A stretch of DNA of 62,958 bases from a virus (Duplodnaviria > Caudoviricetes): positions 1-62,958 of IMG/VR virus record IMGVR_UViG_3300044648_000169; one strand, written 5' to 3'. Positions 6,660 through 62,788 of this stretch are shown here, piece by piece (the stretch's first letter is position 1; every line of letters starts with the position of its first letter). The translations under genes were made by a program, and so were the position numbers. The notes beneath the pieces were generated by a model, which did no database searches, had not been told where the DNA came from, and saw only the letters and a program-made list of their open reading frames with translations.

Positions 6660-6841
6660 GCCTTCGCCCCCCTCGCCCACTGCCGCACCTGGCTGGCGTC
6701 CCACTTCCGGTTTCGCCGGCTGTAGTTCACGACCGGCTGCGGGAAGCCGGGCTGCTTGGTCAGCCGGTCAGTGACGTGCTTGCGGCCCACGCCCAGGAAG
6801 GTAGCGATGTGCTCGGTGGTCCACTTTTCGTTGTCGATCAT
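6656..6841 (-). CDS. AlpA/excisionase-like winged-helix protein
   Basis: IATFLGVGRKHVTDRLTKQPGFPQP...RKWDASQVRQW. Confidence 0.7.
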   Translation of the reverse strand: MIDNEKWTTEHIATFLGVGRKHVTDRLTKQPGFPQPVVNYSRRNRKWDASQVRQWARGAKA

Positions 6842-6849
6842 GGTGCTGC

Positions 6850-7422
6850 TCACTTCAAACGCTCCCCGCGCGAAAGCGCGGTTTTCATGTCTTGCTCGAT
6901 CCGGTCCATCAGGCGGTCGAACTCCGAGGCCAGCCAGCGCGCGGCCTGCCAGTGCGGGCCGGCGAGGTTGTCCAGTGGCGTGCGCCCTTCCCCGCCGCAT
7001 GGCTTGCACGGGCGCGCGCTGGTGACCTGGGCGCCGGGGTAGACCAACTCCACCTTGCGGCCCTGGCAGTGCGGGCAGACCTTGCGCAGCCACCAGCGCA
7101 GCGTCACGTTGCAGGTCTGCAGCAGGTCACGGCGGGTGATGCGGCGGTCGATGTCCCCTCCCCTGCGGCAGGACTCGCTGCGCACCCAGCGATAGGCGTA
7201 CTCGGCCATCACCGGCAGATTGGCGGTGTCGCCCGTCACCAGCATCCGGTAGAGCATCAGCGCCTGGCGTCCCTTCTCGTCGGCGCGTGCGGCGTAGCCG
7301 GCGGCCAGGAGGAAATCGGCGTCGCGTCGGCCTTCATCCAGCGACAGGCGGCTGGGGCGAAGGTCGCTGCTGCGGGTCGCTTGCGCGTACCTCTCGAGCA
7401 GGGTGGCTTTGTCGTCGCTCAC
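6850..7422 (-). CDS. antiterminator Q-like protein
   Basis: WWLRKVCPHCQGR...CKPCGGEG Zn finger; located after ninG. Confidence 0.6.
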   Translation of the reverse strand: MSDDKATLLERYAQATRSSDLRPSRLSLDEGRRDADFLLAAGYAARADEKGRQALMLYRMLVTGDTANLPVMAEYAYRWVRSESCRRGGDIDRRITRRDLLQTCNVTLRWWLRKVCPHCQGRKVELVYPGAQVTSARPCKPCGGEGRTPLDNLAGPHWQAARWLASEFDRLMDRIEQDMKTALSRGERLK

Positions 7423-7589
7423 GGTGCGGCATCCTTGTTTTGCGGGTCTTGCGGTTGCAGGCTCTTCAACCGGTCCGCCTCGGCCTTCAGTTGCCCGATC
7501 ACCTGGTGCTGCATCGTTGCGGTCTCGTGGGCCTTGCGCAGTTCGTTGGCGAGGTAGGCCAGGGTTTGCAGGAGGTCAGGTTGGTTCAT
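7419..7589 (-). CDS. small coiled-coil protein
   Basis: MNQPDLLQTL; coupled ORF. Confidence 0.5.
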   Translation of the reverse strand: MNQPDLLQTLAYLANELRKAHETATMQHQVIGQLKAEADRLKSLQPQDPQNKDAAP

Positions 7590-7843
7590 GCCGTCCCCGT
7601 GTGGCGCTCGACGTACTCGTGCTGTAGCCAGGCGAGTGACCCGAGCATTTCGTACACGTTGTCGTGGTGGTCGGCCCAGGTGGTGAACCGGCTGGCTCCG
7701 CCGTCCCCATAGCCGGCGCCGATGAAGGACTGCAGCCGGCCCGCCTTTGCGAAAGCCAGCAAGTCCTCCAGGCTTTGGATGAGCGCGGCGTTCGGCGCGT
7801 CGGCCTCCGGCACCACCGCCCCGTTGATGGCAACCACCTTCAT
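7586..7843 (-). CDS. hypothetical phage protein
   Basis: MKVVAING...LEDLLAFAKAGRLQS. Confidence 0.6.
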   Translation of the reverse strand: MKVVAINGAVVPEADAPNAALIQSLEDLLAFAKAGRLQSFIGAGYGDGGASRFTTWADHHDNVYEMLGSLAWLQHEYVERHTGTA

Positions 7844-12533: not shown

Positions 12534-12914
12534 TCAGCGCCCACCCATCGAGGGCGGATTCCCACCCAACAGCGAGCCAACACGCCGAATACGATCCGCA
12601 TTCGAGTTGGCCATCGCGTCGCTACCCCAGGCCACGCACTCCACCAACGTCCTAACAAACTCAGTGAGGGACATGCCATGACTGGCCGCGATCGCGTTAA
12701 CCACTGCCTTGGTCTCACTGTGAAGCGGGATGCGGCTCAGCTCATCGTCAAATTTCCCGCCGGGGGCCGTCCTCCCGCTCCGACTGAAAAGCGCATTGCC
12801 CCCGTTGAGGAATGGGCCGCCGAGTCCGTTCGACGTGTCTGGATCAAGGCCGCCAAGGCCGGCGCGGTCGAACTCCTGCTCGTTGCACGCGGTTTGATCT
12901 GATGCGGTCACCAT
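12534..12914 (-). CDS. CII-position regulator, RHH-like
   Basis: Follows cro; RIPLHSETKAVVNAIAASHGMSLTEFVR. Confidence 0.55.
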   Translation of the reverse strand: MVTASDQTACNEQEFDRAGLGGLDPDTSNGLGGPFLNGGNALFSRSGRTAPGGKFDDELSRIPLHSETKAVVNAIAASHGMSLTEFVRTLVECVAWGSDAMANSNADRIRRVGSLLGGNPPSMGGR

Positions 12915-13030
12915 GCCGCCCTCCCGTTGAAAACACGGGCCTGGACCCGAAGGCCCAGGCCGCGCAAAGCCGCCTCGAGAGCGGCAGGGAGGAGTCGCAC
13001 GAAGAAACCGGGGAATTGGATGGGGCGCAT

Positions 13031-13309
13031 CTAGGCCTCCAAAGCGGCGCGTTGCTTCTTGGCCCTCACAGCTTTTGGTGCGCCCGGCGCGCTGGCCAGT
13101 TCGGGCCAGATGGTTCGCCAGTCTTGTGGGCGCAGATCCCACCGCATCACCGCCCCGCCTGTCGCGGCCTCAATGGCCGAGCACCGACTTGCGGGCGCCG
13201 GCCTGGTGCCTGCAGCGATCTGGCTCAAGAATGACGACGGGATGCCAACCGCCGCTGCGAGGTCTTTCGCTCGCCCCTTCTGCTTTGCACACCAAGTCTG
13301 TAAGTCCAT
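13031..13309 (-). CDS. cro: Cro/YdaS-like HTH regulator
   Basis: LAAAVGIPSSFLSQIAAGTR...AIEAATGGAVMRWDLRP; divergent from cI. Confidence 0.85.
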   Translation of the reverse strand: MDLQTWCAKQKGRAKDLAAAVGIPSSFLSQIAAGTRPAPASRCSAIEAATGGAVMRWDLRPQDWRTIWPELASAPGAPKAVRAKKQRAALEA

Positions 13310-13315
13310 GTATAG

Positions 13316-13353
13316 ACTTTAGCATTGCAAAGTTTTCGATGCAAGCATTGCTT
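13316..13353 (-). promoter_or_regulatory. PR-like promoter with OR operators
   Basis: TTGCAT-17-TAAAGT overlapping AGCA(A/T)TGC palindromic operators. Confidence 0.75.
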
Positions 13354-13377
13354 CGTGCCGAAATCGACACTCAAGCG

Positions 13378-13980
13378 ATGCATATCGGGGAGCGGCTTAG
13401 AACGCTGGTCAAGGAGCGAGGGGTGGCGGTGAAGGCGTTGGCCTTGCACTGCGGCGTCACTACTGGCGCGGTCTCCAACTGGTTCCGCACCGGGCGGATT
13501 ACGAAGGAAAACCTGCTCGCTGCGGCCGAGTTCCTGGGGACCACAGCCGACGAGGTGATCTCAGGCGCCGCGCTTGATCGGTCGGCGCCCCAGGCGATGG
13601 CATCGCCCGCGTCAGCGCTCAACCTGCTCGCGCGAGCGTTGGCGGGGTTGCCCCGACTAGAGCGGCTTCAACTGGCCACGCTGCTTCCGTTGCTGGCAAC
13701 TGAGCCTGAGACCAGCCGGCAGACCATGCAGGCGATCCTGCGGCTGTTGGGGGCCGACCCCGTGGCCGCCGATGAGGTGGCGCGGGTGGACTTCAGTGAA
13801 CTTGCGCTGGACCTTGCAGAAAAGCTGGACGCCATTCCAGAGGGGCGGCGAGTTCGGGCGCACCGCGCTGCAAGCGTGGCGCTGTCACTGCAGGAGTTTC
13901 CCGACTCTGGCGATGCCACAGGCGACCGGCCCCCACCGCCAGGGCCGCGGCCTGGCTCGGGCTCGCGCAAACCGCGCTGA
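13378..13980 (+). CDS. cI: CI-like XRE repressor without S24 peptidase domain
   Basis: IGERLRTLVKERG...LALHCGVTTGAVSNWFRTG HTH; helical C-terminus with no GDSM/K peptidase motifs. Confidence 0.8.
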   Translation: MHIGERLRTLVKERGVAVKALALHCGVTTGAVSNWFRTGRITKENLLAAAEFLGTTADEVISGAALDRSAPQAMASPASALNLLARALAGLPRLERLQLATLLPLLATEPETSRQTMQAILRLLGADPVAADEVARVDFSELALDLAEKLDAIPEGRRVRAHRAASVALSLQEFPDSGDATGDRPPPPGPRPGSGSRKPR

Positions 13981-14293
13981 GTAGCCCGGCTTGGGCCAGT
14001 GGGGCGATCACGCTGCTCACCTCATCCAACGGCTGCTGGTCGACCAGGAGCACCGCCGGTCGACCGCCGGCCTGGGTCGCCCACGCCTCCAGCAGGAATC
14101 GCACGTCCCCGGGACAGAGTTGGAGCGCATGGCCGGCGTCAACCAGCAGGCACTCAGGCGGGCCGATCAAAAGGGCCCGTGAAATCGCCCGCTCAATTTC
14201 CGCCTCACAAATGCCCTGCTTCAGCGTGATGCGAACAACATCACGATATGGCTGATCGACCGTCCAAGCGTTTGATGGCGCGGTTCGTGGCAT
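13793..14293 (-). CDS. hypothetical alpha/beta (STAS/SpoIIAA-like) protein overlapping the cI 3' end
   Basis: GGGGGAA RBS; pattern VVRITLKQG...LLVDA...PAVLLVD; fold is my inference. Confidence 0.55.
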   Translation of the reverse strand: MPRTAPSNAWTVDQPYRDVVRITLKQGICEAEIERAISRALLIGPPECLLVDAGHALQLCPGDVRFLLEAWATQAGGRPAVLLVDQQPLDEVSSVIAPLAQAGLLSAVCASPSQAAALAVGAGRLWHRQSRETPAVTAPRLQRGAPELAAPLEWRPAFLQGPAQVH

Positions 14294-14346
14294 CAATTCC
14301 CCCTAGTGCTTTCCTGCACATTTTGCGGGGGCGGAAACACTTTGAC

Positions 14347-14366
14347 ACCTAGCAGAATTGCCGTCA
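14347..14366. promoter_or_regulatory. lux-box-like site A
   Basis: ACCTAGCAGAATTGCCGTCA; abuts the luxR1 ATG and overlaps GTGTCA-17-CAAAAT on the minus strand. Confidence 0.55.
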
Positions 14367-15115
14367 TGAAATCCCTACGTGATGTCTTGATCTCGGAGGC
14401 TTTGGGCGGCCTGGGTAGCGCTCAGACGGCGCCGGAGTTCGGCGCCCTCGCGGAAAAGCTCACAGAGGGTTTCGGCATGGATCGGTACATCGTGATCGAC
14501 GTGCGTAACGGCACCCTGGCGGGGCTGCACCACAACGCGCCTGCCCACTTGAGCGCCGACATCGAAAACCTTGCCACCGCGGATTCGGACCCGATCCTCG
14601 GGAAGGCCCGAGTTTCGCGGATGCCATTTGCATGGGGTCGCGGCGACGGCGGCCCCTGGCGCGAGGCATATGGCAGCTTGGGGTATCACTCGGGAATCGC
14701 GGGCGTGACCTGGGACGGCGTGGGCTCCGGTGTCATCGCCCTGTTCTCTTCGGAGGCTGATGGCCTGCCGGAGGAAATTATCGGCTCGCTGCTCGGCTTC
14801 GTGGTGTTGGCGGCCGTGACGATGAGCACGCCGCTGCGCCGTTTGGCGCCCAGACCGCTGGCCGAATGCCCTTTCACGGCGCGCGAACTGGACTGCCTGC
14901 GCTACGCGCTGGCCGGTAAGTCGTCAAAGGAAACGGCGCGCTCGCTGGGCATTGGCGCGCGGACCGTGAACCAATACCTCGAACGAGCGCGCACCAGGCT
15001 CCAGGTCAAGACCACCTACGCCGCTGCCACGATAGCGCTGCGGCGTGGGTGGATCGACATGCAGGAAGCGTCGGAGCTGGCCGGCTTAGTTCCCGCCGCC
15101 ACCGGTGCGCGGTAG
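14366..15115 (+). CDS. LuxR-family solo regulator 1 (autoinducer-binding domain + HTH)
   Basis: DP...PFAW...G..SG pocket; FTARELDCLRYALAGKSSKETARSLGIGARTV HTH. Confidence 0.9.
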   Translation: MKSLRDVLISEALGGLGSAQTAPEFGALAEKLTEGFGMDRYIVIDVRNGTLAGLHHNAPAHLSADIENLATADSDPILGKARVSRMPFAWGRGDGGPWREAYGSLGYHSGIAGVTWDGVGSGVIALFSSEADGLPEEIIGSLLGFVVLAAVTMSTPLRRLAPRPLAECPFTARELDCLRYALAGKSSKETARSLGIGARTVNQYLERARTRLQVKTTYAAATIALRRGWIDMQEASELAGLVPAATGAR

Positions 15116-15169
15116 GTCGGCCGGGTTGTAGTCGCGGATGCCAAGCAGTGCCAGCAGGAAATCAAACAT
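15086..15169 (-). CDS. 27-aa small peptide (absent from ORF track)
   Basis: GGAG-7nt-ATG; MFDFLLALLGIRDYNPADLPRTGGGGN*; downstream of lux-box-like site B. Confidence 0.55.
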   Translation of the reverse strand: MFDFLLALLGIRDYNPADLPRTGGGGN

Positions 15170-15249
15170 GGGTGGACTCCACAGAGGGTTGCGGTCAAAT
15201 CGACCGCTGTCCACTTTGAAGTCCCTAGCACGTTTCGCCTAGCTGCAAA

Positions 15250-15269
15250 ACCTGTCAGGTTTACCGTCA
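15250..15269. promoter_or_regulatory. lux-box-like site B
   Basis: ACCTGTCAGGTTTACCGTCA; 15/20 identical to site A; overlaps palindrome AAACCTGTCAGGTTT (15248-15262). Confidence 0.55.
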
Positions 15270-15287
15270 GTGACAACTGAGGTAGGC

Positions 15288-16004
15288 CTAGTCGATCAAG
15301 CCCCCTTGAATACAAGTGAGCACCGCGCCTTGCACGGAGCTGGCGCCCAGTTTGCGCGCAGCGCTGCGCTGCCGCCGGGCCACCTCTGGCTGGCTGATGA
15401 CCATGCGCTGACCCACCTGCCAGGCGGTGTACCCGTCCTTGGCCCAGCGCAGGCTTTCGAGTTCGCCGGCATCCAAGACCGGGCTACCTGCCGGGGTCGG
15501 GGTAGAAATCCGCTGCAGCGCTGACTGCGCGTGCAGCGTGACCATCTGCACGGCCGCCTGCAGGCGCATGCGGACCACCGGGTCGATCGGCAGCGCGTCC
15601 GGGCGATCGAAGCCCAGCAAGAACTGCTCGAGGTGGCTGGGCTCGTGCACGCTGCACGCTACCCCGCAGCGGTAGCCGAACGACGCCTGCAGATCCCATA
15701 GATCCACCGCGCCCGCTTCGACGTAGGTGGACTGGTCATACAGCACGGGGACGATGTTGGAGCGCAGAGCCCGGATGACCGGATCACGCAGGGCATCGCT
15801 CAGCGACTGCTGTGCCACGACATAGGCATCTGGGGTGTTGCCAACCCCGAGCATCCAGGCATTCGCGGATCCCATGGCGCCGCGGATCAGCACCGCCGAG
15901 AACAGGCCGAAGCCCAGCTCGTGTGCTGCTGACGTCAGGCGGGACCGCAGGGTGTCGACGTCCGGCGACAGTCCTAGATCCAGGAGTTGCTGCTGAGAGA
16001 GCAT
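15288..16004 (-). CDS. LuxR-family solo regulator 2
   Basis: NTPDAY...RDPV...PVLYDQSTY...DLWDLQASFGYRCG; ELESLRWAKDGYTAWQVG HTH. Confidence 0.9.
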   Translation of the reverse strand: MLSQQQLLDLGLSPDVDTLRSRLTSAAHELGFGLFSAVLIRGAMGSANAWMLGVGNTPDAYVVAQQSLSDALRDPVIRALRSNIVPVLYDQSTYVEAGAVDLWDLQASFGYRCGVACSVHEPSHLEQFLLGFDRPDALPIDPVVRMRLQAAVQMVTLHAQSALQRISTPTPAGSPVLDAGELESLRWAKDGYTAWQVGQRMVISQPEVARRQRSAARKLGASSVQGAVLTCIQGGLID

Positions 16005-16010
16005 GGACCG

Positions 16011-16343
16011 CTATTGCGACGGAGTCCCGCCCTGTCTGCAATCGTAGTTGCCCTTGATGTTGGCGAGGTAGTAGCGCCCTAGGGACGGCGATGAACGCCA
16101 CGCCGCCACGGTCTCTGGCGGCATGCGGCAGTAGTGATACCAAGTGCCCTTGAGGTTCACCAGCAGGTAGCGGTCCGACAGCTTCCAGCAGGTACGCCAG
16201 ACCAGCGAGCTGGGTTGCTCCACGCAGTTGAAGCCCTTCAGGTCGACCTCGCCGTGGTACTTCACGAAAACCGTCTCGGCCGACGCGCCCATAGGCGCCA
16301 ACGCGAGCGCGGCCAGCATCACTTTCGTTCTCAGTGGTCCCAT
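16011..16343 (-). CDS. KTSC-domain protein with signal peptide
   Basis: Hydrophobic N-terminus ending ASA; SSLV...YHYCRMP...SLGRYYLANIKGNY. Confidence 0.75.
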   Translation of the reverse strand: MGPLRTKVMLAALALAPMGASAETVFVKYHGEVDLKGFNCVEQPSSLVWRTCWKLSDRYLLVNLKGTWYHYCRMPPETVAAWRSSPSLGRYYLANIKGNYDCRQGGTPSQ

Positions 16344-16403
16344 AGCCCCTCCCTGGGTTCGCTCGATTCTTCCGGCCTAAGGGTAAGCCTGCACGGATTT
16401 TTG

Positions 16404-16443
16404 TTCAGCAATGCTTGCCATCAATACTTTGCATTGCTAAACT
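16404..16443 (+). promoter_or_regulatory. PL-like promoter with OL operators
   Basis: TTGCCA-17-TAAACT with the same GCA(A/T)TGCT operators and layout as PR. Confidence 0.75.
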
Positions 16444-16483
16444 CTCTTCCGTCGCACCCAACTTCCCCGCCGGGGATGGTGCG

Positions 16484-16708
16484 ATGGGAGCAAGGGTCAT
16501 GCAGCACCACGCCTACACGCCATGGGAAGTGCAGATGCTCACCAGGGCGCAGCCGAGGCGCTTCCATGTTGCGCGGCAGGTCGAGGACGGAACGTGGTCC
16601 TCGCCGCACTGGGAGCAGATGCCGGCGGCCGATGGTGGCATCGCCAGGTTTGAAACCGCCGAAGAGGCCCGCGCTGCCATCGCCGCGGATGCCGGGGTCG
16701 CCGCATGA
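16484..16708 (+). CDS. hypothetical early protein
   Basis: First ORF after PL; RFETAEEARAAI. Confidence 0.55.
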   Translation: MGARVMQHHAYTPWEVQMLTRAQPRRFHVARQVEDGTWSSPHWEQMPAADGGIARFETAEEARAAIAADAGVAA

Positions 16709-61756: not shown

Positions 61757-62788
61757 ATGGCGAGCTTCAGGAAACGGCCCAGCAAGAAGTGGCCGAGTGG
61801 CGTGCAGGCGACCGTCGACATTGCCGGCGCTGGCGAGGCCAGCGAGACCCTGCCGAACATGCGCGAGGCGCGCATCTGGGCGGCCGAGAAGGAAGCCGAA
61901 CTTCGGGCCGGGCTGTCGGGCGCCTTCCCCAGGAAGACGCTGGGCGACGCCCTGGACCGGTACGAGCGCGAGGTGACGTCCCACAAGCGCGGCAAGCGCT
62001 GGGAGTCCGCCCGCATCGGGCACATGCAGCGCGAATTCCCTGAGCTGTGCGCCAAGGTGCTGCACAAGATGACAGCGGCCGACTGGTCGGCCTGGCGCGA
62101 CGCCCGGCTGCGTGGTGCGGGGAAGCGCCAGGCGGTGTCGAAGGGGACCGTGCAGCGAGAGATCAACCTGTACCGCAACGTCTGGTCGATCGCCGCCAAG
62201 GAATGGCGGTGGTGCGCCGAGCCCTCCCCGTTCCGCTCGATGCGCATGCCCGGCGACAACCCCGCGCGCCAGCGCATGGTGTCCTGGCAAGAAGCTCGAG
62301 CATTGGCCAGGCGGATGGGCTACCGCACCGGCCGCCGGCCCGAGGACAAGTCCGGCGAACTCGCCTACCTGCTGCTGCTGGCGCTGGCCACCGGAATGCG
62401 GACCGGGGAACTGCTGAGCCTCACCGGTGAGACCGTGGACCTGCAGCGCCGGGTGGCGCGGCTGGACGTGCACAAGACGCTGGAGAAGGCCGGCGTGCGC
62501 CACGTGCCCCTGCCCCGCCGCGCGGCCCGCCTGCTGGCGCCGCTGCACCGCGAGGGCCGGCTGTTCACGCTCACCGCGGACTCAGCCGATGCGCTGTTCC
62601 GCAAGTACCGCGACCAGCTCATGATCGATGGGCTGACGTTCCGGGACACCCGGGCGACGGCGCTGACGCTGTTGTCCAGGAGGGTGGATCTGCTGACGCT
62701 GACCAGGATTTCCGGCCACCTCGACCCGCGGCAGATCAGCGAGGTGTACTACCGCGAGCGGGCCGAGGACATTGCCGCGCGGATCTGA
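61757..62788 (+). CDS. int: tyrosine integrase
   Basis: TGMRTGE, K, FRDTR, SGH, YY catalytic motifs. Confidence 0.92.
   Translation: MASFRKRPSKKWPSGVQATVDIAGAGEASETLPNMREARIWAAEKEAELRAGLSGAFPRKTLGDALDRYEREVTSHKRGKRWESARIGHMQREFPELCAKVLHKMTAADWSAWRDARLRGAGKRQAVSKGTVQREINLYRNVWSIAAKEWRWCAEPSPFRSMRMPGDNPARQRMVSWQEARALARRMGYRTGRRPEDKSGELAYLLLLALATGMRTGELLSLTGETVDLQRRVARLDVHKTLEKAGVRHVPLPRRAARLLAPLHREGRLFTLTADSADALFRKYRDQLMIDGLTFRDTRATALTLLSRRVDLLTLTRISGHLDPRQISEVYYRERAEDIAARI

Follow-up and report, generated by a model that had tools for sequence, protein, structure and literature searches.

A candidate signal-responsive cassette with two LuxR-type receptors, a micropeptide gene and a STAS-fold gene in the immunity region of a temperate phage

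The IMG/VR record IMGVR_UViG_3300044648_000169 (62,958 bp; the whole stretch is referred to here as the window) is a temperate phage ascribed to soil Burkholderiales, and its immunity region carries a four-gene cassette that recurs in 6-7 other phage contigs. Opposite the 3' end of a cI-type repressor gene (13378-13980, + strand) lies a gene for a STAS-fold protein (13793-14293, - strand), followed by luxR1 (14366-15115, +), a gene for a 27-aa micropeptide (15086-15169, -) whose last 30 nt fall inside the luxR1 3' end, and luxR2 (15288-16004, -). Two related sequence boxes accompany these genes. Box A (14347-14365, -) abuts the luxR1 ATG, 72 nt 5' of the STAS ATG, and the core of box B (15250-15268, -), with the palindrome AAACCTGxCAGGTTT, lies 99 nt 5' of the peptide ATG and is followed by a -35-like hexamer. 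The leader of the peptide gene (15164-15220, -) can be folded into an inner hairpin and an outer stem that extends to the GGAG ribosome-binding site. As judged from its sequence, the cassette is probably a route by which a chemical signal reaches the lysis-lysogeny switch of the phage.

The position of the cassette is well delimited. A gene of the cro/YdaS family (13031-13309, -; open reading frame (ORF) listing and Pfam) precedes the repressor gene, and the operator region between them, OR (13314-13352), forms a 39-nt inverted repeat, 82% complementary, with an OL copy at 16407-16445. A PL-like promoter, TTGCCA-17-TAAACT, was found by promoter scan at 16415-16443 (+), facing rightward to recT-type early genes. 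The inverted repeat and this promoter place the cassette between cI and OL/PL, the interval occupied by rexAB in lambda. The order and strands of the genes in this interval had been proposed by a sequence-only reading of the window, and the ORF listing, Pfam and the OR/OL repeat all confirm them. The repressor itself matches HTH_3 (E 3e-6) and PHROG repressor families and has no S24 peptidase. At the far end of the interval, luxR2 is preceded by a gene for a KTSC-domain protein (16011-16343, -; E 6.8e-9, with a signal-peptide-like N-terminus by eye), and this pair diverges from the PL-like promoter at OL. OL repeats OR in inverted orientation, and the KTSC-luxR2 operon therefore runs away from its operator in the same sense as cI does from OR, an arrangement that suggests expression of the operon in the lysogen.

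Loci related to the cassette were gathered with LuxR2 from viral contigs and metagenomes, and their gene order was checked by tblastn. Seven of them (L003, L004, L005, L006, L007, L009 and L010), the closest apart from L008, share the convergent luxR2/luxR1 pair. A cro gene and a cI-type gene stand beside the pair in all six that have enough flanking sequence (L009 is too short), or seven of seven with the window, which bears out the expectation of conserved synteny in phages. The adjacent repressors fall into at least three unrelated types, none with an S24 domain, and the remaining flanking phage genes are dissimilar between loci. Dissimilar flanks around a constant cI/cro neighborhood indicate that the cassette moves between mosaic phages yet stays in the immunity region. 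The KTSC gene, which the sequence-only reading had counted as part of the module, does occupy the position given for it, but it has no tblastn match in the other loci and is an accessory gene outside the module. In L008 (5097-8253), part of a 1.2-Mb metagenome contig, two luxR2-like genes lie in tandem beside a RadC/JAB-like ORF (by eye), with neither luxR1 nor a peptide gene.

Both receptors belong to the LuxR type, as had been proposed, on the evidence of Pfam and of a TraR profile comparison. LuxR2 combines an N-terminal Autoind_bind domain (6.2e-13, above the cut-off) with a C-terminal GerE helix-turn-helix (HTH) that is atypical (7e-4, below the cut-off) and retains the equivalents of E178, L182 and G188 (E181, L185 and G191). 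LuxR1 shows the reverse balance, with a canonical GerE HTH (1.9e-11) and an Autoind_bind match below the cut-off (1e-3); its family profile nevertheless aligns with TraR of NGR234 (2q0o) over positions 12-228 (E 2.6e-21), which is a full-length TraR-like architecture. The two proteins are 24% identical. According to PMC10134790, six residues of the LuxR pocket are conserved: W57, Y61, D70, P71, W85 and G113. LuxR2 keeps three of the six (D70, P71 and G113, TraR numbering). Alignment to RhlR and SdiA places the pocket positions at Y61, Q65, D74, P75, Y89 and G114 of LuxR2, corresponding to the substitutions W57Y, Y61Q and W85Y, and across 31 homologues W57 is replaced by Tyr or Phe, Y61 is variable (Gln here) and W85 is replaced by Tyr. 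With a pocket altered in this way, a ligand other than an acyl-homoserine lactone (AHL) is possible for LuxR2. In LuxR1, W57 and Y61 are absent or not conserved, and DP and W85 are mostly retained. No Autoind_synth (luxI; PF00765) gene was found in the phage record, a weak negative given that the same search gave no signal in any of its 14 control genomes.

A search of 5.8 billion proteins returned 46 relatives of LuxR2, many from contigs of 40-60 kb, and a genome-contig scan with the phage-clade LuxR2 alignment gave 76 pattern matches with no true relative among them. LuxR1 has nine relatives, and a search of viral contigs with its alignment recovered no contigs beyond those already in the locus set. 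More distant LuxR2 relatives (30-37% identity) occur among luxR paralogues arrayed in tandem on one strand, as many as six in a row (L027, 150-4650; also L021, L022, L031 and L042). The HTH is missing from the LuxR2 homologues of L003 (5965-6627), P0038 and P0039, which are about 208-220 aa long and resemble truncated TraR-like inhibitors.

The boxes recur together with the cassette. A box B core of about 19 nt around CTGACAGG occurs in seven of the eight phage loci, 95-99 nt from the peptide ATG and followed by a TTGACA-like hexamer. In the window, boxes A and B are identical at 14 of 19 positions, a level reached by only four other 19-mers of 125,880, and the proposal of two related boxes is thereby upheld. 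With leave-one-out position weight matrices, the site that scores best or next best across the entire locus abuts the start of luxR1 in L003, L004, L005 and L010; L007 has a different, 26-nt element at both box places (85% complementary). Overall, a box copy abuts the luxR1 start in six of seven loci, at 54-74 nt from the STAS ATG, and box A covers the luxR1 ribosome-binding site. A sigma-70 scan detected no promoter at box A or box B.

The micropeptide gene is persistent too. In all eight phage loci an ORF of 16-27 aa opens with ATG behind a GGAG ribosome-binding site, and the small ORF of the sequence-only reading is real and conserved. It begins about 100 nt past luxR2, ends within the luxR1 3' end and differs between loci by in-frame length changes only. 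In its product, a short hydrophobic/acidic stretch that closes with L-L-G leads into P-R-T-G-G or P-Y-x-G-G. A loose regular expression for this tail matched 11 of 56 loci; every match lay immediately 3' of a luxR2 homologue, with none at any other position. In L004 the ORF is displaced to about 1 kb past luxR2 by three inserted genes (6710-7600), one for an HNH-like secreted protein, one for a zinc-ribbon protein and one that is an ORF on the opposite strand, and the box, leader and peptide remain at the luxR1 end. Readings of the peptide as a double-glycine leader, a microcin C-like peptide, a ribosome-arrest leader or a type I toxin were considered by eye against the features of those families and dropped on the grounds of mismatched spacing, the lack of a same-strand gene downstream, and a product whose shortness and acidity do not suit a membrane helix.

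Between box B and the peptide ATG, a hairpin within an outer stem that reaches the ribosome-binding site is predicted in all eight phage loci (z -2.1 to -4.5), and a covariance model of the leader matches all eight. On the model-fitted alignment, 80% of cells are paired, compared with 71.6% after shuffling (0 of 500 shuffles reach the observed value) and 29-49% when the alignment is slid. The inner helix is 91.5% paired, with compensation at four of its six pairs, and the outer helix is weaker (68.8%). For eight sequences on a fitted alignment, these values amount to moderate evidence of a conserved, covarying leader structure. In L010 (1925-1980) the 3' arm of the leader is present twice, such that the 5' arm could pair either upstream of the ribosome-binding site or over the start codon, and it is possible that this duplication constitutes a switch.

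The gene opposite cI proved to be something other than the anti-cI ORF of the sequence-only reading. Its antisense placement at the cI 3' end stands, and its identity is corrected to a STAS-fold protein. The ORF starts at an ATG with GGGGGA 5 nt upstream, and its product has no Pfam match, including to Pfam STAS. An AlphaFold2 model built on a four-sequence alignment has a predicted local distance difference test (pLDDT) value of about 90 for residues 6-133, with residues 134-166 disordered. Foldseek matches to the model are STAS proteins, namely RsfB, SpoIIAA, RsbS and the STAS domains of SulP transporters (TMt 0.6-0.7; 8ih8_B at E 2.2e-4 and SpoIIAA 1tid_B at TMt 0.70). The Atlas gives a SpoIIAA-like lead as well (0.91). 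On the basis of this model, the product is a STAS-fold, SpoIIAA-like protein. Anti-sigma-factor antagonists of this fold pair a phosphorylatable Ser with an anti-sigma kinase; here, no conserved Ser is seen at the phosphorylation position of the four-sequence alignment (by eye), and the cassette contains no kinase gene. A profile search of 1.84 billion representatives yielded only 16 proteins. Homologues diverge from luxR1 in L003, L004, L006, L007 and L010 (hhalign probability 89.5% and E 2e-6 for L006, L007 and L010), making six of seven loci with the window, and it is thus the STAS gene, not the peptide gene, that is divergent from luxR1.

The STAS and cI genes overlap at their 3' ends by 188 nt in the window, 194 nt in L004, 136 nt in L003, 173 nt in L006 and 161 nt in L007 (five of six loci, 136-194 nt). 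In each protein it is the disordered tail that falls within the overlap, and for that reason the overlap of reading frames may be incidental. Even then, the transcripts of the two genes must converge. Across the overlap in the window (13793-13980), each disordered tail is encoded opposite the end of the other protein's fold, and the first codon positions of the two genes coincide across strands. A terminator-like site at 13840-13825 (-) is within chance expectation (three found against 2.4 expected).

The luxR2-peptide half of the cassette also has a life outside phages. Four loci (L013, L017, L018 and L021) look chromosomal, with SPFH/NfeD and gltX neighbors or, by eye, parA-rsmG-mnmG. A genome scan with the bacterial receptors added 29 loci in Roseateles, Pelomonas, Rubrivivax, Piscinibacter, Caldimonas, Rhizobacter and relatives, and a similar peptide lies 3' of the receptor gene in about 25 of these 29 (a filter picked out 16, and the rest were seen by eye); no peptide was seen after the receptor in L077, L085, L087 and L088. 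The bacterial peptide ORFs (L062-L090 and the four chromosomal-looking loci) span 9-25 aa and combine P-R/Y-x-G-G(W) with a hydrophobic stretch, in an order that varies, P-R-G-G-W coming first in some. Palindromes of 16-18 bp occupy the place matching the boxes (by eye), and in three bacterial loci out of four the divergent upstream ORF has weak, sub-threshold DUF4902 matches. No bacterial locus was matched by the covariance model of the leader at E values up to 1, indicating that the leader structure, as modelled, is restricted to the phage type. Literature searches yielded no description of a conserved bacterial LuxR-solo/micropeptide pair. Because the luxR2-peptide pair is also chromosomal, the phage half is probably a LuxR-solo/micropeptide unit captured from a host lineage of the Roseateles/Rubrivivax-type Burkholderiales. 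The sequence-only reading had held that homologous cassettes found mostly outside immunity regions would speak against it; this is the situation of the luxR2-peptide half, most copies of which are chromosomal, and not of the four-gene cassette.

The same observations lend themselves to an account in terms of lysogenic conversion, in which extra copies of a host LuxR-solo/micropeptide circuit rewire the behavior of the host, or mimic or jam its own circuit, and the rexAB-like slot is used only because it is expressed in lysogens. The mostly chromosomal distribution of the pair fits this idea, as does the variable accessory content of the slot (a KTSC gene in the window and, in L004, genes of lipoprotein-like, HNH and zinc-ribbon type). 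However, luxR1 and the STAS gene are rare and were seen only with phage-type loci, and box A and the convergent overlap with cI physically tie the cassette to the switch, and lysogenic conversion is regarded as rather unlikely.

A second alternative makes the micropeptide the ligand of LuxR2, or its precursor, in the manner of arbitrium AimR-AimP, for counting among phages or cells. In its favor are a tiny ORF with a conserved short motif about 100 nt after a receptor gene, the occurrence of motif and hydrophobic stretch in either order, as in leader/follower peptides, and the replacement of W57, Y61 and W85 in the pocket. On the other hand, the cassette has no signal peptide, exporter, importer or maturation enzyme for such a ligand, and no LuxR-type domain is known to bind peptides. 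A complex prediction for LuxR2 with a 42-aa reading of the peptide ORF scored 0.02 against a mark of 0.32 and provides no evidence either way. The chance of a peptide ligand is considered slim. Slimmer still is that of a new unit in which widespread LuxR-solo/micropeptide signaling of the Roseateles/Rubrivivax-type Burkholderiales, with the micropeptide (P-R/Y-x-G-G-W plus a hydrophobic stretch, in either order) as ligand or precursor, was captured by temperate phages as their main SOS-independent input and joined by a second LuxR and a STAS-fold anti-repressor. If true, the receptor would be the first of the LuxR type to be linked to a peptide, and phages of Gram-negative bacteria would have an arbitrium-like system.

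No Peptidase_S24, ANT or Bro-N domain was detected in the record (controls rang), nor any LexA-type site of the form CTGT-N8-ACAG (0.77 expected by chance). No standard SOS route is therefore visible, in keeping with the SOS independence proposed earlier, and this leaves room for the cassette as the induction input. In the explanation favored here, tentatively and without great assurance, the four genes would form a signal-responsive cassette that tips the switch to lysis without SOS. Both receptors would be present in the lysogen, with read-through from cI supplying LuxR1 and a promoter that diverges from PL at OL supplying LuxR2. A LuxR dimer, with LuxR1 as the main DNA binder and LuxR2 as the sensor, perhaps as a heterodimer, would bind a possibly non-AHL ligand. 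Binding at box B would switch on the micropeptide, and binding at box A, over the luxR1 ribosome-binding site, would switch on the STAS gene, whose transcript would converge into the cI 3' end. The STAS protein, the micropeptide or both would then act as anti-repressors, leading to lysis. Of the two, the STAS protein or its transcript is the more likely link to cI, because the peptide is common to bacteria that lack the phage; for the peptide, a place within the receptor circuit, as feedback partner or as product, is likelier. The nearest precedent (PMC10432266) is a LuxR that together with a second transcription factor activates a small ORF (smORF) inactivating cI.

Several points weigh against this explanation. 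No box A was seen in L006, L005 has an unrelated 82-aa ORF in place of the STAS gene, and the STAS/cI overlap shrinks to 4 nt in L010. Given the disordered STAS tail, the long overlaps elsewhere may reflect nothing more than how rare stop codons are in DNA of 67% GC. A cI-specific anti-repressor role of the peptide is unlikely, as bacterial solos without a phage repressor share the peptide and the phages have cI genes of different types; the receptor or a host factor is the likelier target. The peptide, at 16-27 aa, 3' of luxR2 and convergent with luxR1, also departs from the known smORFs of transcription factor-smORF modules, which are about 50-80 aa and divergent from their transcription factor. 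The missing LexA box and anti-repressor families constitute negative evidence only, and no RNA run is among the sequencing runs that contain the locus. Finally, in Phaeobacter prophages, according to 10.64898/2026.07.02.736140, LuxR activates the lysogeny promoter, and the sign of the output could by analogy be the opposite one, toward lysogeny.

Indeed, the cassette may stabilize lysogeny or set the decision at infection, with ligand-bound LuxR keeping the repressor side high and box A serving mainly in luxR1 autoregulation. The Phaeobacter xre-luxR-luxI modules of the same preprint offer a model for such an arrangement. In the window, luxR1 comes after cI on the + strand without an intervening terminator-like site on that strand, and its ribosome-binding site is under box A, as autoregulation would have it. 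Unlike in Phaeobacter, luxI was not found here (with the weak control described above), an antisense gene would be an odd means of stabilizing cI, and no other induction route is visible in the phage. A pro-lysogeny role is accordingly judged unlikely. That the cassette triggers induction is nonetheless something we infer, with a pro-lysogeny or host-directed role as the alternative, and the earlier reading of a signal-sensing lysis-lysogeny module is, taken as a whole, partly supported.

The CheckV completeness of the record is 97%, the G+C content is 66.8%, and a tyrosine integrase gene lies near 62360-62761. The phage was found in two DNA sequencing runs, both soil metagenomes, one of which may be its source. 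A blastn search of positions 12900-16500 against 50,697 phage records returned no matches, and PADLOC defence models gave nothing better than E 1e-3 for the five cassette proteins.

So far, phage receptors that listen to chemical signals have been described in a few linear plasmid phages (Vibrio and Aeromonas) and in prophages of Phaeobacter. The cassette would bring integrating lambdoid phages of soil Burkholderiales into this group, and its wiring differs from that of the known phage modules in its two LuxR paralogues, its STAS gene antisense to cI and its peptide of 16-27 aa. It also points to a conserved LuxR-solo/micropeptide pair in bacteria.

Parallels to individual parts of the cassette exist in several systems. 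Lambda OOP RNA is a non-coding transcript that converges over the 3' end of the lysogeny gene cII; the antisense transcript here is likewise convergent at the 3' end of a lysogeny gene, but it would encode the STAS protein. In Sinorhizobium, the LuxR-type proteins VisN and VisR are thought to act together as chromosomal regulators of motility, without a phage link, and the NCBIfam matches to them here are weak and far below the cut-off. VP882 VqmA-Phage/Qtip resembles the cassette in that a phage copy of a host receptor is involved and the host receptor also has a small adjacent target gene. The protein families are unrelated, however, and Qtip is phage-only, whereas the small gene here appears to have been captured along with the receptor. 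The xre-luxR-luxI modules of Phaeobacter (10.64898/2026.07.02.736140) likewise place luxR downstream of a repressor-side switch gene; they possess luxI and drive lysogeny, whereas here no luxI was found and two receptors, a peptide and a STAS gene are present. Closest of all are the XRE-LuxR-smORF modules of the Aeromonas phages ARM81ld and Apop (PMC10432266), which resemble the cassette in a phage-encoded LuxR, a second transcription factor and a small ORF near the repressor, with a promoter of its own that is regulated there and putatively so here, by which the phage could respond to a chemical cue. Those modules lack luxI, and none was found in the present record, with the weak control described above. 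Their phages are linear plasmid phages with an autoproteolytic cI, as opposed to an integrating lambdoid phage with a non-cleavable cI, their second factor is an XRE protein rather than a LuxR, and their smORFs are 51 aa long, divergent and without homologues. By comparison, the small ORF described here is 16-27 aa long, convergent and has bacterial homologues, and it is accompanied by non-canonical pocket residues in the receptor and by an extra STAS gene antisense to cI.

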